64,000 nucleotides of DNA, from NCBI GenBank assembly GCA_036172245.1, contig JAYWIR010000016.1, positions 1,674,001-1,738,000 of the forward strand, read 5' to 3'. This stretch comes from Raillietiella orientalis (Eukaryota). Position 1 is the stretch's first letter. Each line of letters starts with the position of its first letter. Under the pieces are notes generated by a model. That model searched no databases. It had not been told where the DNA came from and saw only the letters and a program-made list of their open reading frames with translations. Below, piece after piece: positions 26,880-58,600 of the stretch. A program made the position numbers and the translations under genes.

Positions 26880-28720
26880 AGGCGTTGATTATAAAGCAAT
26901 AAACATACAAGTCTGGGGCCGTCGGCCCTACTTCGTTGGAAAATGTTCGGAACCTGTTGCGTAACCGGCACGCAGGCCGGCGAGGTTCGCCTCTGCAGCG
27001 GAGGGGGAGGAGAAGAACAGAAATAAGAATAAAAACAAAAACACGATGCACAAAAAACTGGAAGGGTTAAGAAAGGGATCACCGCTCGATGGAGGGCACC
27101 CTCTGCATCCTTTCCAGGATGTTGGCAAGTTCCATTCGAGTATGCCCCAGGTGGGTCCATCTTACTGCAGTTCTCATGAAGTGCAGGGTGAAGCAGATGG
27201 AGTCCCTATCTCGCCGCCCTCCACTCGCGTAGTTCCAGGCCTCTGCCAGAATCCCACTCAGGCAGCAAAGATCTGCTAGGGATGTGGCAGGAGAAAGGGC
27301 ATCGCGCACGAAGAGGCGCTTCATCACGTCCCTGGAATTGTCCGTTGGTGCACCAAGGGCCCTTGCGTAACGCAACCACAGGGGCCGGAGGGCAACACAG
27401 TGTACAAGCAGGTGCAGAAGGATTTCCGTTCCCTACACCTGCAATAGTTGGGGTCCACAGCCCGCTGGGTCCGGTGAGACCGACGGGCGTTTCAGGGGAT
27501 ACCCTAGTGCAACAGCAAAAGTGCCGACTCCTGCCAATTCAGGGGGAGGATCCGGTTGTTCTTCAGCGCTGGGGGCCACTCGAGGTCTTCCTGTAGGATT
27601 TCCAGCAACTCACCCCAGCTCAGCTGTCCCTTTGGTGGGGTATTTGGGGTCGCTGCGTCCGTAAGCTGGCCCGTGGTTCAACCACCTAATTCCTTCGTCC
27701 GAAGACCGATCTCGCAACTGACCTCCCATTTGGCCTGCTGGTTACTGCCCTGGTGCTCTCTGAGAGAGGGCAGTGCCGCTGCTAGGGATGTTCTTTGCGT
27801 CCACGCACACGTGGTGGGCTGCACGATGACGTCCTCCAGCGAGCGGTTGCTGTAGGAGTGCAGCAGTCTCCGCCGCATCTCTGGGCTCGCTTGGTTTTTC
27901 TTGGCGACCGGCTTCCTACAACCAGGCACTACCGTTCGCAGGCCGGCATGAGGTTCAGTTGTTGGTCCTGGTTAGCTTGGCCACTCTCCGGAGCGAGTGG
28001 TCGTTCCAGTTTGCAGCTGGACACGAGGCCTCGGCGCTGCCGCGCCAGGAACGAAACAGTCCCGCGTAGCCGCTGGCTCGCTTGACAGGAATCGTGTAGG
28101 CCCGCACCAGTTCGTGCCCCATAACTCCGTCACTAGGGCGAGTGTCCGCCGTTGGAGCTGCCTCTCCAGGCCTCCAGCGTCAGAAGGCCGAGGTCTTCGT
28201 CGCGACTCGGAGCGCACAAGCTCTTCGAGAGGACTCGGAACCTCCCTGTGCCCCACAGGGAGATTAGAGTGAATTGGATTCCCATTTATACTGGAGATGA
28301 GGGGCGCACTGGGCCGAAAGTCCCCTGGACCTAGTCCGATAAAGCCGATCGTGCACAAATCGTCACGGAAAGATTCACGGGCATTTTTACATGTCTTGCC
28401 TCTGCCTCACAGCTGCCAAATAACCTCGGGGAAGCAATTGAGTCTTGTGGACGGCAGCAGCTTCCTCACTCTCACTTGCATGCCACAACCCTCTGCGGGA
28501 ACCACTCCGCCAGAACATAAAGGGGATGTTCCATAGAATTTTGGGATTTCTTTCAGCATCTTGTAAATCAAAGCCAAGGCTTGATTAGTTGATTCAAAAA
28601 GATGTGAAAAGTCCCCCTCGGGGGTAGTTTGGGTATCCAATCTAGGAATGCGTAATCCCAAACTGGGGCTTAACGCCAAGGTCTTATCGATTTTCCTGCT
28701 CATTACTTCGCACCTGCTAT
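26880..28720 (-). mobile_element. L1/Tx1-like LINE 3' half, related to the 1690-2583 element
   Basis: SLGLRIPRL (cf. GGLGIP.L), PNYCRCRERKSFCTC zinc-finger remnant, homologous 3' UTR. Confidence 0.7.
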
Positions 28721-41287: not shown

Positions 41288-41422
41288 TCAGATGTGTTTC
41301 ATCATCTCTTCCGACAGCAGAGCGAACGCCTTCTCCATGACTACGCACGCCTCGCCGCCTGAGTCCGGATGGTGCTCCTCCAGCCACTTCTTCAAGTAGC
41401 AGACGAACAGCCTCTTTGCATT
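41288..41422 (-). CDS. Globin B, coding exon 3 (NAKRLFVCYLKKWLEEHHPDSGGEACVVMEKAFALLSEEMMKHI*)
   Basis: ctcttttcAG acceptor, 135 nt to TGA; 21/44 identical to globin A exon 3; spliced CDS 150 aa. Confidence 0.93.
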   Translation of the reverse strand, partial: NAKRLFVCYLKKWLEEHHPDSGGEACVVMEKAFALLSEEMMKHI

Positions 41423-42412
41423 CTGAAAAGAGGTCATAGGACTCAGCGCCAGCTCTCGAGAGAGGGGGCAGGGTCTGTGACCGCCGCTCAACACGTGAGC
41501 GCCGGGACCTCCGCGGGCACACCCGCAAGCAGAGACCTCTCTGCTTCTCGGCAGCCACGCTGCAGCGGGGGAAACTGCGGCCGCTTGGGGCTATATCGGG
41601 AAACAAACCAAAGCAGAAGGGGAGGGGGAGGGCATCGCGCTGGAGAGCTCGTGAAGAGGGAGATGCGAACGGGAAGAACGGCCGACTTCCCGGATTTCAT
41701 AGCCGCTTCCGGGGAGGACGGGACAAGCGAGGAGGCTTCGCTAGTTCGACAGTGCGCGCGCGCGTGGGAGGGAGGGGAGGGAGAAGGGGAGCAGAGGATA
41801 GCAACGGTTCCTTTTCCCGCGCCGCGGGGGACTTCGCCTCCCCTAGGGCGTGGCTCGTGAGCTCTTTCCGATGCGGCGGCGAGGAGACGCGAGCGCGTCG
41901 CCTTCCACATCCTCGCGCACCCGCACCCGGAGAGACTGGTCACTCGACCATCAACCCCATCGGATCCTCTCGGAGGAACTGCCCGACACGCGGGTGCAGG
42001 AAGGTGAAGGGAGGAAGCGATCAGGAAGAGCCTCCAGATGGGAGAGGCGGACGGCGTTCGAGTACGCAGGAGTGCCAGAGGAGGAGGAGGCGAGGGAAGA
42101 GTGCTGGCGCGCTTCCAGCTCGTAGTCTGAGGCAGAGGTCGAAAAAAATGAAACGAAAAGGGGTGGGGGGAAGAAAAGGAAGCATCCTTCCCTGAATCTC
42201 AGAATCCCTGCCCTTCTCCAAGGAGGCGCGGCGCAGCGTCCGGTCGTGGACCGTCGCAGAGAAGGAGAAGTCGTTCGTAAGGACGGGCAGCTTCTCCTCG
42301 CTTCCTCCTCCAGGCCAATGACGAGGGACGAGAGCGCGGGAGCGATCAGCAAAAGGAAGGGAGGAGAAGGAGAAGGAAAAGAGGGAGGAGGAGAGGGATG
42401 CTGGAGGTTTAC

Positions 42413-42638
42413 CATGAAATCCTCCTTGTCGAGATTCATGTTCTTATGATGTTTTCCGGACTTCTCGCAGTACGCCTCGAACATATCCCGGTCGCCCACG
42501 TTCGTCAGGATCGCGTCCAGGCTGTTCATGAACATGGTGCCGTGGGCGCGCAGCATCTTCGAGTGGCGTATCTGGTCCACCGGTACGTCCTTCAGGAACT
42601 TGAACAGCGGGATGTACTTTGGATAGGTGGTGAGCAGC
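42413..42638 (-). CDS. Globin B, coding exon 2 (G + LLTTYPKYIPLFKFLKDVPVDQIRHSKMLRAHGTMFMNSLDAILTNVGDRDMFEAYCEKSGKHHKNMNLDKEDFM)
   Basis: tcttctccccAG acceptor, GTAAAC donor, 226 nt; Pro C2, Phe CD1, His E7, His F8; 46/75 identical to globin A exon 2. Confidence 0.96.
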
Positions 42639-45600
42639 CTGGGGAGAAGAGCAGGTGGACAGGTTACTGGGAGGCGGGATATCCTCCCGACGATGGCAGA
42701 CCTCGCTCTCAGCTCTGGGATCCGCCCTTCACCATCCCGACCCCCGGGAGGGGACGTGCTTCGAGGCATTGTTCCGCGGATTCTTCGAGATAAACCGGCA
42801 GCGCCTCTGCTCCGTTCGCCCAGGAGGCCCACTTTCCAGAACGGGTGGGGCTGATACGGGAGAGGGGAGGCGCCGTCGTTCCCTTTCCCAGATTGCAGGG
42901 ATGAACCTGTAGTCCTCACGTGAGATTCGGGCTCGTCGAGCAGAGGCGAGCTGCGTGCCATTGTCAGAGGGCTTTGCCCTGTTTGCCTCCGGGCACGGGA
43001 ATCACTTAAGTCAGCGGGAAGGGAGCGCGTGAGGCGATCTCCGGTAAGCGGCAAACGGGGTGGGGTGGATTTGCTGCAGGAACCGAGATGCTCCGAACGC
43101 GAGGACGCTCTCTGGATTCCCAGACGCTTGCCGTTACCCGGATGGAAAGGGGGAGGGGGGAGAGGGAGAACTCTGACGGAAGCAGTTCGTAGATCTCGTT
43201 CTCTCGCGCCTCCCCCTCGAGAGTCCTCCTCTGAGAGCAGGCGATAGTCGAACTCTGTTCTGTTTCTGTTCGTTTGCTGGAGCGGCCGGAAAGGGAAAAA
43301 AGGAGGGAAATTTTGGCTAAGGGGGAAGGGAGGAGAGACCCAGGCATCTCAAGGGGAGGGTCGGCGAGAGTCTCACGCTCGAAGTGTCCCGGGCGTCTCC
43401 CTCCGCATCCCCGGAGTGCCATCCGGAGAGATGAGAAGAGGGGAACCCGGGGCATTTCAGCGGGAGAGCCTCAGCTCCAGAATGGACCATCGAATGCGGT
43501 CTCTCCGGAAACATGATCTCCCGGTCGGAATCTGCACTAAGCTCCCAGGACCAACGTGATCCTGCGACCAACGTGATGCTGCCCACGAGGGAAGCAGCTG
43601 GAGGAACCAGGAACCGTGTTACGGCACGCCCCTTCTCACGGGCCGGCAAGCGGCTCCAGGGAAAACGCCCTTGCCCTTTTGCAGCATAGTGGGGAACGCT
43701 GTCTGCTCCAAGGTGCCCAAAAGAAGGGACTCTGCAGGATGGAACGCCCCGTTCGAGTGGCCAGCCGGTACCAGATCTAAGCTGCAGGATGCAGCTTAGA
43801 TCGTGCCTCGGGGATCCAGAGTCCTGTCCAAGCACGAGCAGGATGGTTCGGAGCAAGAAGAGATCACAGGAACGGGAGCAACAAAAAGGTCGGAGTCTGC
43901 TTGTGCAGTACGCGAAATCCTTGATCCCGGGAGATGAATCCTCGGAAGCAGTATTGCTTACCGGATAGTCCTGCAGGATGCGCTTACCTGAAGGGTGCAT
44001 CCTTGCGCTCTCCTCCTCCTTCTCCAACCCTCCTCTCCTTCCCTTTCCTCCTCCTCCCTTGCTTTAAACTACCAAGGATGTTGTGGTCTTGACAGGCTCC
44101 ACCTTCTGGACCAAACCTCGCGTCAGAAACTCCCTCCGTTCACACACAAGGGCTACTCCCTCTCGCGCTGTCGAAGGCGGTTGCTCCGATGGAATGAGAC
44201 CCGATGGCTTTCTGCAGCAACGCTGACGGAGCTCCCCCGCCCCGCTCCCACTTCTCCGCAGACTTCAAGGAGGGTGGTCAGTCCTCATCCATCCTGCACC
44301 CGCATCACCAGAGCCGTTTAGGATCCCCGAGGGACGAGCGCACTCGGGAATCTCTTGGGCGAGATTCCTACAGGCGGCAGTTTCTTCCGGCAAAGCCTCC
44401 GCACGTCGGATGGGCATCGGAAAGGCAGGGGTAGCCCCCTCTGGGCTTCCTCGAATAAACGCGGGTACTGCCGGGTCAAAACCGCCGAAACGCTAGCAAA
44501 GGGAAATTCCAGAATCTTCCGGGAAGGTTTCGCTCAGGAGGTGACTTCAGCGACCGCATGAAGAGCGGCGAAACCTGGGACATCTACCTCCTCCTCATCC
44601 ACCCCCGTCTTCCTCGTCTCTTTCACCCTCAGCAGCAGCATGGAGGAGCAGTCTTTCCGGCGAAGGCATCCCGAGCAACAAATCTCTCGCGGTTCCCGGT
44701 TCCCATGCGCGTAACCGGGTCCTCCACGGACGGAGCCGGTCACTTAAAACGCTCCCAGGGCGCTCCGGGCCGGTACAAGAAGGCACCGTGCTCTTCCAGC
44801 GCATCAAAGGACGGGCGATCGAGAAAGTATGCCATGGGTGAGGGTGGAGCACGGAGGATTCTCACAGGCTTGGTCGCTAGTGAAGAGTCGGCCCCCAGCC
44901 TAGTCACGATGGCGGGGTAGCACGGCTGCGGAGACCACAAATGGAGCAGGGTGCACCTCCTCCATTTGCGGGCGTTTTCATGCATGTTTCCGTTTCTGAG
45001 GAGAACCGGAAGGGTCGACTGTCAAGCACGTCGCACCACATCCAGAGGGCTCCCTTTGGAGGCAGGTAAGGTAAGCCTGGGGGGGGGGGGATCCCAGCCT
45101 CTTTCCAAGCTTCGCGAGCACCCCCTCTCCACCCTTCTGCTGATGGAGTCACCGGAAAATGCCGTCCATCCTACAGCCTCCCCTTTGCGGCGGAGGCCCT
45201 CCGCTGCAAGCCCCCGCCAGGCGGCGCCTTTCATTCCCGCCTGATAGCGCGCGCTTGCCGCGAGCCCGGAGGAGAGATCGCGCCAACCTCGATTCGCCGC
45301 TCCTCCGCCTGTGGCTCCTCCGGCTCGTCCTGAGTGCCAGCACGTGCTGCAGTCCGCATCCGTGCTCTTCCGTCTCCCCATCCCAGCAAGGACGAGCCAG
45401 GTCCAGTTCCAGAAGCCGGAGTCCTTCAGTACTCCCTCGCTCTTTCCCACTCTGATCTTCTTTGCATGGGGGAAAATCCTCAGCTAGCGTTCCGCGATGG
45501 GTCATCTGGTCCGGTGGACATCTCTGAGCCCAGAGATCGCACGTTTGAACCAGAATGGCTGAGGATGCTGCTGTAGCAATAACCGCGTTCCTTGTCTTTC

Positions 45601-48057
45601 TCTTTTTTCTTTTTGCTCTTCCCTCTTCCTCCCCGGGCAAGGAAGAGGAGCGAGAGAAAGATCCAAGAACTCACTTCCCTCCCCCGGAGGGATATTCGAG
45701 TCAGGAAGGAGCGGTTGATGGTCCAACAAGGACGAGATCCTTCCCGAGCGCTCATCTCGGATCCCCTGCCTTCAATCATCCCTGGAGTATCCAGAGGAGG
45801 ATAGCGGGCGGCTTCCTCGAGAGAGACGGACGCCCCCTTTCCTTCCATGATGGCGTCCGGGCACAGCTTATTCTTTCAGATGAGGACCTCTCCGGAGATC
45901 AGTTGCCCCACAGGGACTTCAGACTGATCCATTGTTTTGCTTCCTCTTTGGTAGCCGCACTGTGCAGAGTGGGAGGGGATTCTTCGGAGTGATGCCGGGA
46001 AAAAATCCCTCTCCTGACCGTCAGGGCTTCCTCCCGAGTCGGGTCCTCAACTCAGCCCCCTAAGAATGGAAGTGAATAGAGGATGCAAGGGAAGGAGCTC
46101 CTCACTGACCGCAGAGCAAGGTACAAGAATCCCCTCATCCTGCTCTCCTTCCCCAGTAGGGTAAACCTCAGAAAGGGACCCAGAGCATCCACAACTGCCA
46201 ACAGAAGGGGCGCCGTCTTAGCAGGAGCTCCGTTTGCTTTTTTTTTTTTTTTTTACTTCTTCTGGTAACCCCGGCAACCTTCTCTCCCGGTTCCCACCCG
46301 TCGCGCAGCTGCAGCCTTCGGTGCCCTCGCTCCTTCCCCTCGTGCTGAGGAAACGCTGAGTAGGCCGTTCGATCCCTCCTTGCGCCACGCGTCACAGGCG
46401 CGCGCCGTCGCGCTCGTGTCGCTCGCGCAGTTGGATGGGCTCTCGCCTGCCGACCCCGCCTCGTCCCTGCCGACGTGGAGGTCGGAAAGGGCGGAGGATG
46501 AGAGCCTCTGGACGGAGTTCGGAAGGGGATCGGCGGGGAAGCGGTACAGAGCCCCCCTGGAGCACCATCGTAGGCTGGTGCAGCTCTTCTCCACGTCCGG
46601 CGAGCAGAAGGGGGCGAGCACCCGACCCACGCGTCTAGCTGCTGCCAGAATTACGGGGTCGTCGAGGGATCAGAAGAGCCGAAGAATCCCAAGGGTTCTG
46701 CTGGAGCGGTTCCCCCGCAATGCAAGCGCCGATTTCTCCTCCCTCGCCCAATTCCCGAAGCTCCTGGTCCCGACAAATCCGTATCGGTCGCCTCCGAGGC
46801 GGGCGTCGACGTTCGATCCAAGCTCACTGCTGCTTCTTCAGATCGTGGTCCTTCCTCTCGAAGGATCGTTCTTGCCCTCCTCTTCCGCTCGATTTTGGCG
46901 GGAGTCATCTTGAAGCTTCTTGCTCGACAGTCCGCACGCCTGGGATGGCTACAGGCGGTCAAACACCGGGAGAGCCCAGGAGGGCTCTCCGGGACCTGAC
47001 CGCAGGGCAGCCATCAGGAGTGCCCCTGAACCGGCCCACGGCTCAAACTATGGGGAACGCCCTGGATCACCACTGCGTCTCAAGAAGGGTGCTGCGGAGG
47101 CGGCAGTGGAGACTGGAATGTTCCTCCTCTCAAAAGCAGAAGGCGAGTTTGCCCTGAGGGTTTCGTCACGACCCCACAGATCATAAGGCTGGCCGCGCAG
47201 TCAGGACTCTTCCCTTACCAATAGCTTTTCCCTTCCTGTTCCTGTCCCCTGTGTGACCCGGGATCCCAGACCGAGAGGCAGTGACTAGGGAGAAAGGGAG
47301 ACGCGGCTCCAGGAGGGAGCAACTATTGGTTGTGGGCTTTTTCGATCCCAATAGCCAATCCATCGAAGGAAGGGCGATTCTAGAAGACCAGACAGAGATT
47401 CCTGCAAAGGAGGGGGGTCTGAGAATCAGGAAGCGGTGCCTCGCCGGTCCTTCCGGAGCTGATTCACTCGGAAGTTGCTCCCAGGGGCAGAAACTCTACC
47501 TCTGTCTGGCCCTGACACAGCAAGTTCCCGTGCTGGGAATTCTCCCGTGATGAGGTGCGTGAAAGGTGGCTGTAAGCGCCGGGCGCTCCGCGCGAGGAGG
47601 CTTCGAGCTCCTACTTTCAATTTCTCGCCCTTTCTTCAGCTCCCGTCATCACTCCCTAAAAGGGCTGATCATGGCTGCGGTGGTCCGGGAACAGTCTCGA
47701 GAGCGAATGCGAGTGGGAGGACCCGGTCGCTCGCGGTCGCGCGGCGACGAAGGGAAGGGAGGGGCAGGAAGAGCCGACCGCCTTCCTGGAAGACGGCGGA
47801 GCTGGAAGGAATGCCTCCTCCTTTCCCTTTTCCTCCCAACCCTTTCCCTTCTCCTGGGGAAAGCAGCAGCGAGGACTTTCGACATCCAACCTCAGGGCAT
47901 CCTCGAGACTTCTCCCGCTCTCTTTCCCCGGGGCTATCGGTGAAAGGGCGAACTTCGCTCGAGGCGAGCAGGGAAAAGGGAACAAAGAAAAGCGAGGAGA
48001 AAAAGAGAGGACGCGGTGGGAAAAGCAGGGGAGGAGGGGTGGAGGGGGCTTCCTTAC

Positions 48058-48149
48058 ATCGTGAAGAACTCCAATCCGTGCTGAGTCTTATCCTGGAAGA
48101 TCTCCGCCCACACCTGCAGCAGCTCTAGCTGATCCGCATCTGACAGCAT
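48058..48149 (-). CDS. Globin B, coding exon 1 (MLSDADQLELLQVWAEIFQDKTQHGLEFFT + AT, phase 2)
   Basis: ATG at 48149, 92 nt, GTAAGG donor; 14/31 residues identical to globin A exon 1 including Trp A12 and KT.HG.EFF; B12.2 intron. Confidence 0.9.
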
Positions 48150-51100
48150 CCTTCCCGGACCATAAGCGGCAAGGGAGTCCCTCGATCTGGAAAAGTGTCG
48201 CTCAGTTTCTTTTTGCCCTGCAGAGCAAAAAGCAAACTGTCTTGTCAGCCACAGAGGGAGAGAGGTGGAAATCGCTACACCATCATCTCCCTTCCCACTG
48301 CTTTCCCCCCTTCCCCTCCCTCCCGAATTTTTCTAACTCTGCCGGTTACGACGCCATGCGGTGCCTCGGCGAAGCGGAACATGGCGGCGCGCAGCTTCCG
48401 CAACAGGCCATACCCCGCGGCAAAGGGTAGGGGGAGCAGGAGGAAGGGGCTGGAGCAGTCGAGGAAAAGGGGGGAGAATGGAATGGCCCCCTCCCCTAAA
48501 AGCTCCCTTCCCTTCCATCCCACGAGGGGGAAGCGGAAGAGAGAAGAAGAGCCTCAGGCCATTCCGGTACCAGGTTTTCTTCAAGACCAAGGATTATTTC
48601 CATCCGGAAATCTACTCTCCCTGTGGATCTCAACAAGGGTTGCCGAGACGCCGTCCTCGCGTCTTCCTTCTCCTTATGGAGTCGAGCCACACAGGAGGGG
48701 GAAACAGAGGAAAGGGTGGAGCTCCTCCCGTTTCCCTCGGAGAATGCCCCTCCTGTTTCCAGGAGGTCTGCGATCCCTCCTTCCACCTCCGGTGACGAGG
48801 GGGATTCCCTGCTCACGGGAAGAGAGAGCACCTTCAAAAAAAGAGGGTGGAGGCGGGATAAAAAGGGGTGGAATGGAGAGAGGAGCTGAGGGAACGTAAG
48901 AAAAGGGGAGTCAAAAGAAAAAAATACCGCCAGCTCGCTCCGGGCATCTCTGGACGCGTGAATGTGGGTGGAGAGGTGAGGATGGGCTTGGGGCCTTCCT
49001 TCATCGAACATTTCCAGAGCACTCGGGGCACCCGGGAAAGGGGGTGCAGGGGAGGGGGAGGACGCACGACACAGCAGGAGGGCAGGGGAGCAAGGGAGGG
49101 GGGAGGGATAAAAGAAGGAGTCTCACTAGGAGAGCGTTGCTCCACGCCTCGGGGCGTTCTCGCGCAGAACGGGGAGGCGCCGGAGGCCCCGCTTTCGCCT
49201 TCGCACGCTCCGTCGCCAAGGGCGCGGAGGCGAAGAACGCGCGAGCACTGCGCCCCGCGCCAGCGTCGGCCGGTGCCTCGTGGCCGGCACGCCTAAGTGG
49301 TGGGTAGGGGAGGGGGGAAGGGAGGAAGAGAAGAAGTGAGCGAGCGGAGAGGGGGGGGGAGAGAAAGGGAGAAGGAGCAGAGAGTCTCCTCGTGCTCTTG
49401 ACCTTCGGAATGACGCGCGTGGGAGGCACTCCCGAGGAGCAGAAGCGGAAAGGCAGCGCTCGACACCTGCGGAATTCAGACGGCATAGGAAAAAGGGAGT
49501 GGCAGCCGCTCCCCGCGCGCAGAAATGGGTATGCTTGCACTCGAGGGCTCTCCCTCTTCCCTGCCTCTTTCTCTCGTTCTTCTTGGTTCTCTTCGCCTCG
49601 AGGTCTCGCCGTCCCGTGGACGGCGTAAGAGGGTGCGGGGCAGAGGCAGGGGTGGTTCGGGGACGGAATGTCTTCCAGGGTTCGGAGTGGCCCTTCGGCT
49701 CCTTGGGGAGATCTCCCCGCACGCCTCCGCAGAGGAACTTCTGGAACCTCAGGAATCAGAGGACTACAGAGCGAGTAACGAAAAATGGCTCTCCTCGCTG
49801 GCGGGATTTTCGGCAGCTTCCCTGCCCTTCTTCGGCAGGCGAAGGACGAAGGACTCTCTGGAGCTGCCCGCGCGCCTAAGGACGCTCCGCCGTCTGGCGA
49901 CGACTTCCAGGCTCATCGGGCACCGGTGGCGCCCGAGCCGCCTCGGCTGCTCCTGCTCAATAGGAGGGAAGGAAGGGGGGAGAGGACGGGAACATACCGA
50001 GCGCCAAGGAGATGACCCATTCCTGCTCCTCCTCTCGTCGCTGAGGCGTCCTGAATCCATGATGCCTTCGTGGGATGGATGAGAGAGAAGGTGGGAGAGA
50101 ATTGCCGGAGGGGATGCTCACGAAGAAGGAAGTGCACCCCGGCATCCTGCTTGGAAACATCTCAGAATCATTTCAGGATGTAAAACTCAGGGAGGTGAAT
50201 ATGTGCAGGAGCAACTCGGGAGGTACTCCCGCCATCCCGATGGAGAAGAAGGAAAGTAGCCGCACCAGGACGCAGAGACATCGACGCCGCACTTCCTGGT
50301 CGGGAGATGCAACCTCGAAGCAGATCCCTCATCAGCCCAGATTTCAGAAACAGCGGATCCGCTCTCGTTCCTCTGTCCCTTTGGAAGCGGAGGATCCCAG
50401 AGGCTGAGCTACCCCCTCTCCTAGCAACGTATCACTTCGGCTGCTGCGCTGCAGAACGTATGGAGAAGCCCTTCTGTGTGCTCCCTGAGGCCTTCCTGTG
50501 GTTTCCAAGCGCGATCATACCAGCCGCAGCCGCAGCTGGAAGCCCTTGGACTGAGAGTCTTCGAACAGCCCGCACCCCAGGGGGGTCCTCGCTTTCTGCA
50601 CCTACTCCGAATTTCCGCGAGTCCATTCTCGCTGCCCCCCTGGCGTCTTGGAGATAGCGGGCTTCTTCCGTTCTGCAACGGAAACGATCCGTCTTCCACG
50701 CCTCGTGACGAATGCCGCCGTTCCCAGAGTTTGCATCCCGGGCCGCTTCTCCGTCAACCCTTCTCCCACTTGCCTCCTGTCTCCTCCCCATCCGCCGCAG
50801 GCACCTTGCCTGAACGGGCGCCCTGAGCTTCTTCCGCGAAGAGCTTCTGCCCTGCGAGAGTCCCGGTGCCTCTGACAGGACGCCACACGCCACTTCGTCC
50901 GCCGGAAGCGCTTCCGGTCCCTGTCCGTCCCAAGCCACTCGCCTTTAGGGAAGCTAGCAAGATACCTCCAGGATAAAGTTCGTTTCCTCCTCCGTCTCGC
51001 TTGCTGCTTCCAAACCCTGTTCACTTCCTGCTTGCTCCTTCCTCCTCCTTCCCGGTACGATGGCGTTCAGAGAGGATCCTGTTTCAACTGCCACCTCGGA

Positions 51101-54100
51101 CGCTGCTGATTCCTCTCGGCTGTCTCCAGCGGGAAGGCCAGAAGAGCTCCTTCGCTACGCAGCATCCATCGCTGGGAACTTAAGCCTCATCGACCCCTTC
51201 CTTCTCTTCCGCGTTCTTGGAGCTCCCTTCCCTCTTCTTCCGTGGTCCCTCCCTTGCGATCCAGAGAATTCTTCAGGTCAGCAGGCGGAATCTGGGTCGC
51301 GGGGTCCATGTCCCGAAGACCTTTCGCTCCAGCTTCGGCTCGCAGCGTGCGGGAACCCCGTGGCTCCCCCCGTGGGCCTGTCATGAACATGCCCTCTCGA
51401 AGCTCACATTTCCTGGAAGGATCCCAGCTTGCCGGTGGGTCACCGTCCTGCCCTTCCTACGGGAGGACAGTGCTGCCGCAAAGAGTGCTGTTTTTTGACT
51501 CCCCCGAACTGCAGGAGGGCAGCTCCCAGCTCCCAGAGGTGTAACCGCATCCGAGAATCCCCATCTCAAGGCTCACTCCCTAATATTTTCCGGGAAATGC
51601 CCGCTTACTTGATCTTCGCGACGAAAGAAGACGAAGGGCTGCAACTTTGTGAGCGATGCAGCCTCCTCTTTTTGGCTCTCCGGTTCGAGCTGAGCGACTT
51701 TTATCCATCCCCAAAGGCACTAACTATGTAGAAGGATGTGGCAGCCGGCCTGCTCGCGTCAGCTGGGGAACATAGACGGGACTTCCCGGGCGAGTTCCCG
51801 ATACCTCTCAGCAACTCTCCTCGAAACTCGGACCGGAAACTGCGGAAGCGCCGTTAGAGTCTCTCTCTCCTGTAGAATCTTCGACTCCCCCATCTTGATC
51901 GCCACCGCTAGAGGAATGTGCAACGCGATGTTCTCAGGGGTCGAGCAGGAATCCCTTCGTTCCTCATCTTCGCCATTTGCTGGATCGTCTCTTGTTCCTG
52001 TGGAAGACGGCCTTCAGCTGCACCAGCCAAGGAGCCATGGGAGCGCTCAGCAATGCGGTTGTTCGGGACAACACGCTACGCAACGGGCCGCACCCGGTGA
52101 CTTGCAAGCACGAAGCGCGCGCGCTCTCCCCTCCCGTGCTACCCAGTGCACCTTGCGCACCTTTCTAAAATCCGAAGGAAAATCCTTAGAAAAGGAGTTT
52201 GAAAAGCGAGAAAGAAAAGGAGCCACCTCATGCCGCTTGCGGGAACGTCTGGTTCCATTACTTCCGGAACCGAAAGTCCATCCTCCGAGACCAGCTCTGG
52301 CTGGTGCTGGAGTCCAGAGGAGGAAGAGGCGGAAGAAACGTGCTCAGTGTTTGGCAAAGGCAGCAAGCGATCACCAGCCAAACGCAGCTGCCTCCCGGAA
52401 GCATGCACGATCATCGCAGTCTCTTTTCCAGAAGATGGATTCCACAGAGTCCTGGAGAGAGCTCTGTCCACGGACAGAGATTCGCTCCCAAAAGGTGCTT
52501 CCTCATCTCGCGGCTTCGCTCCCCTGTGCGCCCGCGGAGGCAACCCGGGTGAAGTGCAAAGCCGGAGAAAATCTCGAGAGCCCCCCTCCCTATCCGAAGG
52601 GGAGGCAGGTGGACCACGGGCGCGGCGCTCGCGGGCCACCAGCGGGCGCCCGCTTCCTGAGGCGAGCGGCGGAGACCTCCTCCAGCTTTGCCACGGGCAC
52701 ATGACCCTTCTTTCGAAGGACAAAGTGCGTCGCTTTCCTTCAAACGTGCATGGGCATTCCACAAACCATGTTGTGCTGCTCCCTTCGACCTGAATGACAT
52801 ACAAGGGGGTTACGATGACCTCAGCGGATCTGATGCCTCTTTAGGAATTCTTGCATCATAAAGTGAACCCCTTCGAATATCTCGACGTTAAATATAGCAC
52901 TTAGAATCACTCCTCGAGAGCACGATGTGGAAGGGGGGATCTCGGTGCTCACCTTGGCGCGTAGAAACGAGAGGCTGATTTCCGTGAAAACGGCAGGTGT
53001 CATCGCCTCACAAACTCCTGCATAAATCCTTTAGGAATATGTATGGGATCACGGTCCGAATAGTCTCGTGGAAAGAATATCCGAGGACAGCTGTGACGTG
53101 GTCAAGGAACTCACGGCAGGAATTGAGGAGATTTCTTTTTTTTTTTTTTTCGAATTTCATTTGCTGGGAACGTTTGCTGCGTCACGGAAGAGGCACACAA
53201 TGTCTCTCTTCCGTTACGCAGCGAGCAGGGGAGAACAGAAATTTCTTTTGAAAAGTAGAAGATTAATGAAGCATTCATTGAATCTCTTCAGAACTCGTCG
53301 AAAACTCAATTTAAGCGTACGGGAGCTCTCAAAATTCGGTACTTAATACCATTGCCTCCTCCTGGCTCATTACAACTGGGTTGATTGGTTGCAACAAGTG
53401 TTATCAAGAGCGCGAAAGAAATTCCAGTAAGCAAAGGTATGCGTCAGATTGAGGTGCATTTTAACATCAGCATGCTCTCCCGAGGACTGCAGTGACCTAA
53501 CGTGTAAACCACGTGCCTTATTGCCCTCGCATTCGACGTGCTTTGCCCCTTACCCACCCGTGTGAGCGCACGCGAAAGAGATCCTCTGCGCTGAAGAGTT
53601 CCATCATTAGCATGCATGCGCAGTGGTCAACCCCTCCCACCATCGGATTACGACTGCCTTTGGCTGAGATCCCTGGAAAACCTGCCATCCCGAACTTGCC
53701 GATATTTCATATATACTTCCATCACTCCCCTTTCCCCCCCCCCCCGTAGGTGAAAGGAAAAGAAGGAAAACCTGCATTCCTTTTTATTTCCATGGAACTT
53801 TCCCATCCAGGAGGAAGCACCGCAAGAAAATTTGGATTATCAAGGATGCTACAAGAGCGCGCAATCTGCATCCGCGGCCGTCAAGCATCGAAGAATTCGA
53901 ACACCGTCAGCTTAGGAAGATAAGTGCGAAATGTTATGGAAGATATTTGACATTTATCAGGCTTTGCTGTTTGCTTTGGATGTTCTCACGGTTGGGTAAT
54001 GGTAAGCGGCATGTGCCCTGCGTAATAGCAAGCACGGAAGAAGTTGGAACTCGATAAGCTCCAGAAGATTGATTTCGACACCAAAATCAAGTCGCCTTGC

Positions 54101-54111
54101 TCACAAGTCTT

Positions 54112-54117
54112 TTTATT
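54112..54117 (-). promoter_or_regulatory. Polyadenylation signal (AATAAA) of globin A
   Basis: AATAAA about 50 nt downstream of the TGA; the same context AATAAAAAGAC follows globin B. Confidence 0.75.
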
Positions 54118-54167
54118 TAATTGGTATACAACAAAAAATGTACACGATGAATTCGGCGTTCCGACAA

Positions 54168-54302
54168 TCAGACGTGTTTCAGCATTTCGCTGGAGATGTC
54201 TGCAAACACCTTTTCCAGACCCGTACAAGCAACTTCTTTGATATCTGGATTGTTTTCCTTGAGCCACTGCTTCAGGTAATCAGAAAATAATTTTCCTACA
54301 GA
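54168..54302 (-). CDS. Globin A, coding exon 3 (SVGKLFSDYLKQWLKENNPDIKEVACTGLEKVFADISSEMLKHV*)
   Basis: cctctttccAG acceptor, 135 nt to TGA; G/H helices; spliced CDS 453 nt = 150 aa, frame intact. Confidence 0.93.
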   Translation of the reverse strand, partial: SVGKLFSDYLKQWLKENNPDIKEVACTGLEKVFADISSEMLKHV

Positions 54303-54678
54303 CTGGAAAGAGGAAAAACAATGGAACACCCCGAGTTGCTTGGAGCGATGGAACACCCCCAAGCATACACCTCCGCACCTTCCACCCCGAGGCCTTACAT
54401 GCGCAGAAACCGAAACGGGCGTTCCCCGAGCAGCGGTTGCTCAGCTTTCTGTGCGCTCAAGACTAAACTTTTTTTTTTTTTTTTCCTTTAGCTCGAGAGA
54501 AGAGGGGTTCCAAGAACAGCAGGGGGTTTACAGAAGAGGCAAAAGAGGCTCGCGCAACCACGCTACGTCCACTCTCTCTCATGGCTGCCTCGGAAGGCAT
54601 GTTCCATTCGCCGGTTCACATTGCATTCAACAACACTGATCGCATTACGACTGAAAATGAAATCCCGTCAGAACTGAC

Positions 54679-54904
54679 CAGAAAATCCACTTTGGTGAGG
54701 TTCATGTTTTTATGCTGCTTTCCCGCTTTTTCGCAGAATGCACTGAACAGCTCCGGGTCATCTGCGTGCGTAAACATATTATTCAGACTTGACATAAAGA
54801 TATTGGCATGGGCTCGGAGCATCTTGACTTCCCGAAGACTGTCAAGAGGCACATTCTTCAGGAATGCAAATAGAGGAATATACTTCGGATAGGTTGTGAA
54901 CAGC
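54679..54904 (-). CDS. Globin A, coding exon 2 (G + LFTTYPKYIPLFAFLKNVPLDSLREVKMLRAHANIFMSSLNNMFTHADDPELFSAFCEKAGKQHKNMNLTKVDFL)
   Basis: ttttcgtAG acceptor, GTCAGT donor, 226 nt; Pro C2, Phe CD1, distal His E7 (LRAH), proximal His F8 (GKQH), Phe G5; intron at G7.0. Confidence 0.96.
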
Positions 54905-55599
54905 CTACGAAAAAGAGCACATGAGAAATGGAGGTTTGTCCGTCCGTCCGAGGCTGCGCGAGCATTCTGGTGCCAACTGGTCTGCAGCCCAGAGGTGGCT
55001 GCAAAACTGTTGCGACCACCGGAGGTGTGCGAACCCATGGGAAATCTTCCTGCTGCGGACTCCGCCGTCACCGTGTAACATAACCGTCCGGGGGACGCGC
55101 GTGCACTTCCCGTTCACCACGCAACTCCTCCCCTCAAGACAGGCAGGCAGGGTTGTACTTTCAACCGTACGAAATTCCTCGCGCGGACGACACTTTACGA
55201 AAGGTTGCGCCCTGTTTTCTCGTGACAGACAACTGGAACTTGGCGTTCAGCAAACGGCACGCCTCGTGGTGTCATGATTCGGATGGTGGCACCCCTTTAG
55301 GGAACACGCGCTTCCCGTTCTGTAAAGGGGTACCACATCTTCTGCCGTCTGCTCTACAGTCATCTCGTTGTGATCGTGGGATGTCGAACGGGACTCTGGG
55401 ACTTCGGCATTCCTGATGCTGGTCCGTAGTTATCGAGAAGAATTAGGATGAGGAGATTGGTCCTGATGCAAAAAGGACCACTCGGCTTACGGTTAGCCCT
55501 CGCGCGCGCTCAAGGCGAAGAACGCCGAAAGAGGAGGAACCAAGCAGTGAAAGGGAAGTGGAGGATGCCAGCGGTTTACAAGACTCGAGAACGACTTAC

Positions 55600-55691
55600 A
55601 TGTTGAAGAACTCCACACCATGATGAGTCTTGCTTTTGTAGATGGCTGACCACGCTTCTTGCAGAGCCTGCTTTTCTTCGTCCAAAAGCAT
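55600..55691 (-). CDS. Globin A, coding exon 1 (MLLDEEKQALQEAWSAIYKSKTHHGVEFFN + AT, phase 2)
   Basis: ATG at 55691, 92 nt, followed by GTAAGT donor; Trp A12, Gly B6, Phe B9/B10; intron at B12.2; same size as and aligns with exon 1 of globin B. Confidence 0.93.
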
Positions 55692-58600
55692 TGCCGAAAC
55701 AGTTGGTTCTAAAACAAGGAACTTGGAACTTGCACCTCGATCAACTGAAAGTACGAGAATGCCTCATGGGTTTCCGAAACTTCCGTTTTAAACCAGCTCG
55801 AACGTTTTTTTTTTTTTTTTTTAAATATTCCTGGTTTCGCTACTACAAAGTAATTCTACGGCGTTTGCGTCGCCTGACGTGACCATCCGCGAAAAAAGTT
55901 ACGAATTTCCGATACGAGGAAATGCCGCGCTTCGTTGCCGAAGGAAGTAAACGGAATTTTCGAGCGTTCACAGTTGGCTTCGAGTTCTGCAGGCACGAAC
56001 AGACAGCAGCGACCTGGCTGAGAGACGACACTCGGGGTCGCGCCGCCTTGGGTCGTCGGCATGCCGGCGGAGCCCACGTTACGATCGCACGACACAAAAA
56101 CACGAATGGTGTGCGGCAAGCGTTTTCGGGTTTCGAGTCCTCAAGAACTTACCAAAGCCAACTCTACCCCGAACGAGCACCAACTCCTTCTGTCAGAGTC
56201 CGTATCTGGCACAGAAGTTTAAACTCCCATAATGACCTTGGATTGATGTCGCTTTTGTTCTCGAAAACACCAATCATAATTTGAATTTTTCCTGGAAAAG
56301 AGATTAACCGAGGAAACCTCCCCCCTCCCCCCCCTCTGTTCCCAATATGCAGGCGATGTGTGTTCCAGTTAAGCCGAGCCGCCGCGCCGGGTGCGCTTGG
56401 TGTGATTTCCACCAAAACAAAAAAGGTTTCAGGGTCTCCAGGAGGGGGAATGGGGGGGGGGGAGGGGGGAAGGAACAGGGTTCCGTCTGCCAGAGACTCA
56501 AGGCTGACTTCCTCTCTGCGTTCCTCCATGACGTCCCGTGTGAAGTCATCATGCAAGTGTTCGGGATTCAAACAGTAAGGAATTTCTGCTTTTCTGTCGC
56601 TCGGGCCAATCATCCATTCCCTCCCTTCCTCTCCCCCCACCCCCCGCCTATCCACCACATCTCCATTCTCCCCGCCACATGATTGCCGATTCGGAGAGAA
56701 AGATGGAGAAGACACGTCATGCCGTTCGAGACGACTCTTAGTTCTGGCCAATTGCATGCATCCATCTGGAAATTTCCTGCGGCCTCTCTAGAAAAGGTCG
56801 CAACCACAGCGTCGGCTGTGGATCCAGGATTTCGTGGAGCCTTTCGGATGGGTCCAAAAGATCTCCATCTCACGGAGCGGTCGTTCCCAGATCGTAGATT
56901 CACGCGAACAGGAAACCATCGATGCGTGTCCCAGGGAGTTCCCGCCTTCTCGCCCTAGGTCCAACACCACCGTGTGCAGCCCAGAGGCGCCGCGTTTCTG
57001 TTCAAAGTTGGCATCCCGGAAGTACCAACGGTCGTCTAAAGAATTGCGCGTGATTCCAGGGAATTTTCGTCTCCTCCCATGGAAAGACGTACGGTCCGCA
57101 AACACCCCGAGAACTATTTGGACACTGCGCGGTGTCTCCGCTTGACTGCCATGTCGTGTGTTCACGGATCTTTCCGCGGCGGCCTGGCAACGTACGAAGC
57201 TCTGCACATCTGCAGGCAGTCGCAGATGGGAGGAGGTGATTCCTTCTGGAGAAAGCCTGCTTGCGGATGATGTGGGAAACCGGCAAGGGCAAGGAAGCTT
57301 CGTCGAGCCTTGCTGCAGAAGATCTTGGCGATGGGATTCACACGACGCATCCGCCAGTGCGCGTGCGGTGAGGTCAGTACCCGACCACTGCGGACACGGG
57401 AGAGTGGCGGCTCGAAAATGACGGCGGGAGTCGCGCAGCTACGGAAAGCACAAAAGGAAGCGCCTTACCATTAGGTCAAGAACTGCCCTCAGCTTTCTAG
57501 CCTCTTCGGACGGTGGCCTCCCTCCCGAAAGCATCTCTGGAAGAGATTCAAAAGAAGAAAGCGATGTGCTGAGTGGCAGCTGGTTGAAACACTCGATGCC
57601 TTCCTCGGGGGGGCACAGATTGAACTGTCCGGCGAAAAGACGCCGGTGCCCTTGGGGTGACGTAATTCTGGGGCTGCTAGTGGCACAGAACGCTCGTGTC
57701 TTTTGGCATTATTATGATCAACTGCATGAGCAAAAATGACACTCGGAGAGCCCAAACCGGCAATTAGCAAGTTTTCCTGCCTTTGTTTCTTTTTCATCTT
57801 TTCCTTTTTTTAACTCGATGCCTTGCGGGAAAACAAAGTTCGGAGCAGTTTTAAATACGCGCTGGCCGGTTTCGGGAGAGTGGGGGGAAATAGGCGGGCT
57901 GGATGCGTCGTTCGCAAAGCGGAAGAAGGTCATTATCGCTCCGGCAGTCCGTTATCCAACCACAACCACGCTTTTCCTCGGTTGACCAGCGCGGTCTTAA
58001 GCAAGTCCGGTGATTTCTGCCCGAGCTCCTCCCTCCGGCTCCAAGCGCGCGCAGGCAGAGGGATTCTTCCTGGGAACACCGAGCCGATGGCACTCTCTTG
58101 CACTCGCCACTTTCCGTCTTGCTTGAAGTACTTCGAGTGGAAAAGTCTTCCATGCCCCGAGCCTGGAAGAGCCTTCGCTTCCGCGTTCAGTTTCGGGGAG
58201 GACGGGGGGAGGGGAAAGAAATCCTTCCCCAAAGGTTGCGAAACCTCTTCCTTATCACCGCGGAAAGTGAAGCCGTGGATCGCACAAACTGATGATCACG
58301 GGGAAGAACGTCCCGAGTGCGAAGAGGGGGAAATCCGAACTTCTTCCGCCTTCGAAATCCGCATCGTTATTGCGTCTTGGAGGATTCCAGGCAACCGGCA
58401 GCGAAGTGTATCGTTGAAAATTAGATTCCGAGATAGAGGGTCCGAATCTGATTGGATTATTCGCACCTCCAGCTTTTGAACTGTGAGCCTGCTGCACGAC
58501 GAGGAGGAGAAGCGAATTTTCCTTGTGCCTCCTGCTCTTTACGCTCCAAGACATCCCTTGATAAGCGCTCGGCTGCGGAGGCCATTTTGTTTGGTACATT

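Follow-up and report, generated by a model that had tools for sequence, protein, structure and literature searches.

Several invertebrate globins resemble the two tandem globin genes, here called A and B, that lie in a 64,000-nucleotide (nt) window of the Raillietiella orientalis genome (assembly GCA_036172245.1, contig JAYWIR010000016.1, positions 1,674,001 to 1,738,000 of the forward strand; the window is this whole stretch, and positions below refer to it). The top PDB match of A and B, by both sequence and fold, was the nerve haemoglobin of Spisula solidissima (8OUP), which shares with them Phe at B9, B10, CD1 and E11, His at E7 and F8, and a single domain. It differs in being a mollusc protein with about 25% identity over the fragment, and nerve expression and hexa-coordination are reported for it. 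Ostracod HbLs (Darwinula stevensoni CAG0906541, Notodromas monacha, Cytherelloidea californica HbL1-3 and Cypridininae HbL1) carry the same Phe B10/Phe CD1/His E7/Phe E11 quartet and group weakly with A and B in phylogenies, but their identity to the pair is only 26-33%, and several have N-terminal extensions, some predicted to be myristoylated, that the modelled A and B lack. The arthropod HbL class (PMC7457136) has in common with the pair the B12.2 and G7.0 introns, Phe CD1, His E7 and F8, lineage-specific duplication, one to four copies and fast divergence; A and B differ from it in their short length (150 amino acids, against a class mean of 171) and in Phe E11, which is found in 1 of about 146 non-ostracod members. 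HbI of Lucina pectinata, which serves a sulfide-oxidising symbiosis, likewise has Phe at B9, B10, CD1 and E11 (PMC9690805; this paper, PMC9926313, PMC2657002 and PMC3820574 are cited from excerpts), but has Gln at E7 in place of His. The excerpt also describes HbI as lacking a D helix, whereas in the predicted structure of exon 2 of A helix E is preceded by a short helix, and HbI was absent from the 15 PDB sequence hits listed for this exon. Annelid-type extracellular sulfide-binding haemoglobins differ in that A and B have neither Cys E8 and E18 nor a leader in the modelled coding sequence.

A and B are intact three-exon genes that lie as tandem neighbours on the minus strand (A, 55691-54168; B, 48149-41288; Table 1), as the preliminary description of spliced tandem globins had it. 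Their exon lengths are identical (92, 226 and 135 nt), the four introns all have GT-AG borders, the first of each gene being in phase 2 and the second in phase 0, and each coding sequence spans 453 nt, ends in a stop codon and encodes 150 amino acids. Exon 2 of A and of B exceeded the Pfam Globin cut-off of 22 bits, with 40.9 and 45.7 bits, respectively. The modelled coding sequences contain no acylation motif, signal peptide or N-terminal extension, and a Kyte-Doolittle scan detected no hydrophobic leader in them (best 9-residue means of 0.56 and 1.44), in line with the earlier statement that a signal peptide is absent. Acceptor-like AGs precede both ATGs and are most simply read as the ends of 5' untranslated region (UTR) introns, an unmodelled coding exon upstream being the other possibility; the putative upstream introns would be in phase 1 for A and phase 2 for B. 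The out-of-frame ATG 5' of the start of B opens a 12-codon overlapping frame (48163-48125, minus strand), which could dampen translation if it is part of the mRNA.

The haem-pocket residues are alike in the two proteins, namely Phe28 (B9), Phe29 (B10), Phe43 (CD1), His63 (E7), Phe67 (E11) and His95 (F8), so that the Phe B10/CD1/E11 pocket with His E7 named in the preliminary description is present in both. In the PDB sequence search, the part of exon 2 of A that covers the E helix aligned without gaps to 8OUP and to Lucina HbII, with His63 falling on the HbII Gln and Phe67 on the HbII Phe; HbII has Gln at E7 and Phe at E11 (PMC9690805, excerpt). Exon 1 of B aligned weakly to a myoglobin (E 0.42), with Phe28 on the Ile directly preceding Leu B10, that is, on B9. 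The phase-2 intron of both genes lies in codon 31, which is B12 and agrees with the conserved B12.2 site (PMC7457136), and the second intron comes directly after codon 106 (G7.0). An AlphaFold2 model of exon 2 of A alone (75 residues, 35-row alignment, predicted local distance difference test score of 93), with B10 outside it, placed His63 and Phe67 at i and i+4 of one long E helix; its best Foldseek match was 8OUP (template modelling score 0.89, root-mean-square deviation 1.3 Å, E 0.031). As judged from PDB alignment, intron position and the predicted fragment fold, the E7/E11/B10 register holds. A shift of the Phe to E10 or E12, which the preliminary description had set as a check, was rejected on this evidence.

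On sequence grounds, A and B are arthropod HbL-type globins and new members of that class. They possess a 3/3 globin domain, Phe CD1, His E7 and His F8, and their introns lie at B12.2 and G7.0, with none at E10.2; the former pair is typical of arthropod HbL, and an E10.2 intron marks GbX (PMC7457136). In a tree without GbX rows, A and B fell among HbL-type sequences and outside GbXL, whose rows formed their own branch with 100/100 support. An identity as GbX or GbXL was rejected by the intron pattern and this separate branch, and an identity as neuroglobin or cytoglobin was rejected because these were weaker hits in the PDB sequence search. The searched genome (210 Mb, 491 contigs) is an arthropod's, as 14 of 16 candidates matched Chitin_bind_4, an arthropod cuticle domain. 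The Pfam Globin search of this genome, which gives a lower bound, scored three candidates and all three matched, namely A, B and one gene on contig C6; no match to a GbX gene was obtained. The globin on C6 (L003:1507-1737 and about 2328-2460) has exon borders resembling B12.2/G7.0 along with His E7 and Val E11, and it grouped with GbXL-type proteins at 100/100 in the tree, its GbXL label coming from comparison with the sequences of PMC7457136. An ordinary arthropod repertoire consists of one to four HbL plus GbXL (PMC7457136), and the two HbL and one GbXL assigned here are such a repertoire.

Further searches added no globin. A third copy or pseudogene of A or B was not detected in the window by tblastn, and none that was convincing was detected in the genome by protein searches, which are lower bounds; two weak genome hits (L008 and L009) proved not to be globin-like on inspection. 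A search for homologues of exon 2 of A among longer proteins scored none of 13 candidates, which is weak evidence, and ESM Atlas returned only generic globin clusters. Among 146 stop-free frames of at least 125 amino acids in the window, only the two globin exons passed any Pfam cut-off. Hemocyanin_M and Hemocyanin_C (hemocyanin, prophenoloxidase) had no match in the genome, a lead only, given that the positive controls were also without a match. The hypoxia element RCGTG was not enriched: its density was 2.67 per kb over the 3 kb upstream of each gene, against 3.69 per kb in the window.

The frequency of this pocket was assessed in two samples. In the first, 76 related domains were aligned, of which 73 covered E7 and E11 (three were dropped) and 61 also covered B10. 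Val was the most frequent residue at E11 (38 of 73), followed by Phe (18), Leu (13), Ile (3) and Ala (1). Phe B10 was present in 54 of the 61 domains and the full quartet in 12, a count biased by queries that themselves carry Phe E11 and by the inclusion of near-duplicates and repeated domains. These 12 comprised four rows of Darwinula and Notodromas, which we take to be ostracods, three rows assigned by genus to cestodes, three of Mytilus, and two domains of one multi-domain protein, presumably from a sea urchin. Among the named rows, all four ostracod sequences had the full set, and none of the seven other arthropod sequences had Phe E11.

The second sample, which was independent of our queries, was the six-part sequence supplement of PMC7457136, read by eye, with a few hemipteran and Daphnia entries hard to register. 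Of the roughly 146 HbL entries from non-ostracod arthropods in which an E helix was present, a single one, Drosophila Glob3, had Phe at E7+4; by hand count, nearly all non-ostracod HbLs had Val, Ile, Leu, Met or Ala at E11. Five of the seven ostracod HbLs had Phe E11, and four had the full set together with Phe B9. Of the amphioxus globins, 4 of 15 also had the full set, as did 8 of 16 from acorn worms. These alignments indicate that relatives of A and B normally have Phe B10, and that Phe E11 is scarce in most arthropods but frequent in ostracods and recurs across the invertebrates. The preliminary description was thus right that Phe E11 is unusual, as far as arthropod HbLs in general are concerned. 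It had also asked whether Phe E11 is routine in ordinary O2-binding relatives, a finding that would speak against its functional proposal, and this is largely the case (Spisula nerve haemoglobin, ostracods at 4/4 and 4/7, cestode, mussel, amphioxus and acorn-worm globins, and Drosophila Glob3). The term E11 does not occur in the main text of the arthropod globin review (PMC7457136), and an enrichment of Phe E11 in ostracods was not found in print in the literature searched.

A and B share 81 of 150 residues (54%) in a gap-free alignment. Saturated synonymous sites (pS 0.78) alongside a pN of 0.27 show that the duplication is ancient and that purifying selection acts on both copies. A tree was built from 29 rows, with fragments, most repeated domains and the sequences of PMC7457136 set aside, and in it A and B were sisters with 100/99 support and a long stem. 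Their shared Phe E11 therefore counts as one inherited event, and two independent origins were rejected. The preliminary description had stressed that the Phe cage is shared despite only about 54% identity; the identity value is correct, but the argument adds little for sister paralogues. Together with three ostracod HbLs, A and B formed one side of a branch with 79/87 support, or 68/87 after removal of the pocket columns, and three changes to Phe E11 were required on the first tree and four on the second. Given the scarcity of Phe E11 in other arthropod HbLs and the weak grouping of A and B with ostracod globins, Phe E11 of the pair is probably a trait that arose once and was inherited in an ostracod-related HbL lineage. 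As for other features of the pair, GC content at third codon positions is strongly unequal (0.82 in B, 0.53 in A) and tracks local GC content (about 60% vs 50%); Cys residues at 88 and 132 (F and H helix regions) are conserved in both, and a third Cys at 114 is present only in B.

We consider it likely that A and B are cytoplasmic single-domain globins that bind O2 reversibly and, in the manner of myoglobin or mollusc nerve haemoglobin, store it in tissue or aid its diffusion. This reading is favoured because the Spisula nerve haemoglobin, with the same pocket, is reported to be myoglobin-like, with moderate O2 affinity as relayed in the excerpt of PMC9690805, which gives sandy shelf as the Spisula habitat. 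What was established directly on A and B is their gene structure, intact frames, purifying selection, residue register and placement in HbL rather than GbXL. An old tandem duplication of an arthropod HbL gene would have given rise to the two intact paralogues, Phe E11 having arisen before it, probably as a lineage trait and not as a sulfide adaptation. By analogy with homologues, His F8 would bind the haem iron, while His E7 would form a hydrogen bond with bound O2 and, as in the hexa-coordinate Spisula protein, may be a weak ligand of the deoxy iron. In myoglobin mutagenesis, Phe at B10 and E11 makes the pocket smaller and drier and slows autoxidation and ligand entry; our literature search found no paper on L29F/V68F myoglobin. 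By extension, the same residues in A and B may tighten or dry the pocket, so that O2 affinity would be raised or kept and autoxidation and ligand entry would be slower. An O2 affinity or kinetics altered relative to Val-E11 globins is plausible for both proteins.

Several points weigh against an O2 store of ostracod-related descent. No close orthologue was present in databases: 33 representatives had 23-38% identity over exon 2, and the best full-length BLAST relatives had 24-35%. The grouping with ostracods is not starred, joins long branches and includes only three ostracod rows. The Foldseek E-values obtained with the 75-residue model are not significant, as none of 79 matches reached E 0.001 and 8OUP itself gave the best value, and the bias of the related-domain count has been noted above. 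In addition, Drosophila Glob3 carries the same quartet yet is testis-specific, being expressed only in spermatogenesis (PMC7457136), so the pocket does not fix the role.

This last observation also bears on a reading in which A and B are bis-His hexa-coordinate globins acting mainly in redox chemistry or signalling, or at low level in restricted tissues (neural, gonadal), and not as bulk O2 stores. The title of the top structural match, 8OUP, calls it hexa-coordinated, and HbL paralogues diversify in function (PMC7457136). We nevertheless regard this reading as unlikely, since the Spisula protein is regarded as myoglobin-like even though it is hexa-coordinate (PMC9690805, excerpt), the modelled coding sequences have no N-terminal extension or acylation motif, and a separate GbXL is present in the genome. 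There is a very slight chance that A and B are secreted haemolymph haemoglobins with a signal peptide on an unmodelled upstream exon. The acceptor-like AGs just 5' of both ATGs would allow this, and the genome has no matched hemocyanin or phenoloxidase domain, a weak point given the failed controls; however, the unequal phases of the putative upstream introns suit 5' UTR introns, the Met start stands at the same aligned position in A and B, and only two HbL copies were found, with no expanded cluster.

The preliminary description had taken the Phe cage as a sign of specialised sulfide or nitric oxide (NO) chemistry. Comparison did not support this: ordinary O2-binding invertebrate globins have the same pocket, which consequently is no pointer to sulfide chemistry, Gln E7 is absent, and His E7 is reported to promote sulfhaem, a non-functional form. 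That the cage stabilises ferric sulfide as in Lucina HbI, for transport or detoxification, is highly unlikely. Four of the pocket Phe of HbI (B9, B10, CD1 and E11) are matched, and Lucina HbII and HbIII stand directly behind Spisula in PDB searches, but these are the O2-binding Lucina chains (PMC9690805, excerpt), and the quartet also occurs in animals without a sulfide link. According to the excerpts, Gln E7, in place of which A and B have His63, lets HbI carry sulfide, and the Gln-to-His mutant forms sulfhaem (PMC9690805, PMC9926313); sulfide entry and stabilisation in HbI are tied to the flexible Gln E7 (PMC2657002). A small opening is that His does not always suffice by itself for sulfhaem to form, as in myeloperoxidase (PMC9926313). 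Neither E8 (Ala/Gly) nor E18 (Met/Ile) is Cys in A and B. Cys at these two positions has a role in annelid sulfide binding. Bulky aromatics at B10 and E11 slow, rather than speed, NO dioxygenation in myoglobin and haemoglobin mutants, which argues against A and B being specialised NO dioxygenases or NO scavengers. Both also lack Tyr B10, the flavohaemoglobin residue, and no reductase partner appeared in the Pfam scan of the 146 frames of the window. Such a role is very improbable, even though oxy-globins generally dioxygenate NO (PMC3820574, excerpt). We likewise give little credence to a broader scenario, in which an ostracod-related crustacean HbL lineage switched to a four-Phe and His pocket convergent with bivalve nerve haemoglobin, and A and B, as the only respiratory proteins of an animal in which no hemocyanin was matched, would in spite of His E7 tolerate sulfide or oxidise it in hypoxic sediment; if true, this would be a natural exception to the rule linking His E7 to inactivation as sulfhaem.

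Elsewhere in the window, two long inverted-repeat pairs were observed (33196-33562/33751-34131, 85% over 383 nt; 10984-11335/11735-12078, 91% over 359 nt), both of which are possibly non-autonomous transposons. Two copies of another sequence (2029-2604 and 27204-27773) share 67% identity and had no Pfam hit in the scan of frames of at least 125 amino acids; on the minus strand, 2029-2604 resembles what we take to be a decayed Cys/His motif of the end of a long interspersed nuclear element (LINE) ORF2.

Table 1. Features of globins A and B in the window; codon positions of pocket residues are given in the last column.
Feature	Position	Strand	Details
Globin A exon 1, ATG to B12.2 intron	55600..55691	-	Phe B9 55610-55608, Phe B10 55607-55605
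Globin A intron 1, 695 nt	54905..55599	-	GT-AG, phase 2 (B12.2)
Globin A exon 2	54679..54904	-	Phe CD1 54870-54868, His E7 54810-54808, Phe E11 54798-54796, His F8 54714-54712
Globin A intron 2, 376 nt	54303..54678	-	GT-AG, phase 0 (G7.0)
Globin A exon 3 to stop	54168..54302	-	AATAAA 47 nt past stop
Globin B exon 1	48058..48149	-	Phe B9 48068-48066, Phe B10 48065-48063
Globin B intron 1, 5419 nt	42639..48057	-	GT-AG, phase 2 (B12.2)
Globin B exon 2	42413..42638	-	Phe CD1 42604-42602, His E7 42544-42542, Phe E11 42532-42530, His F8 42448-42446
Globin B intron 2, 990 nt	41423..42412	-	GT-AG, phase 0 (G7.0)
Globin B exon 3 to stop	41288..41422	-	AATAAA 36 nt past stop
Acceptor-like AG 17 nt 5' of globin A ATG	55692..55710	-	Possible 5' UTR intron, from sequence
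Acceptor-like AG 37 nt 5' of globin B ATG and out-of-frame ATG 14 nt 5'	48150..48188	-	Putative, from sequence

Overall, A and B represent two more divergent arthropod HbL genes with a pocket already known from ordinary invertebrate globins. As natural equivalents of the HbI Gln-to-His mutant, they could be used to examine whether a cage of four Phe shields a globin with His E7 from sulfhaem formation, and they would gain in importance only if such shielding, or genuine handling of sulfide, were shown. The fresh comparative point is that ostracod HbLs commonly have Phe E11, which the HbLs of other arthropods almost entirely lack.

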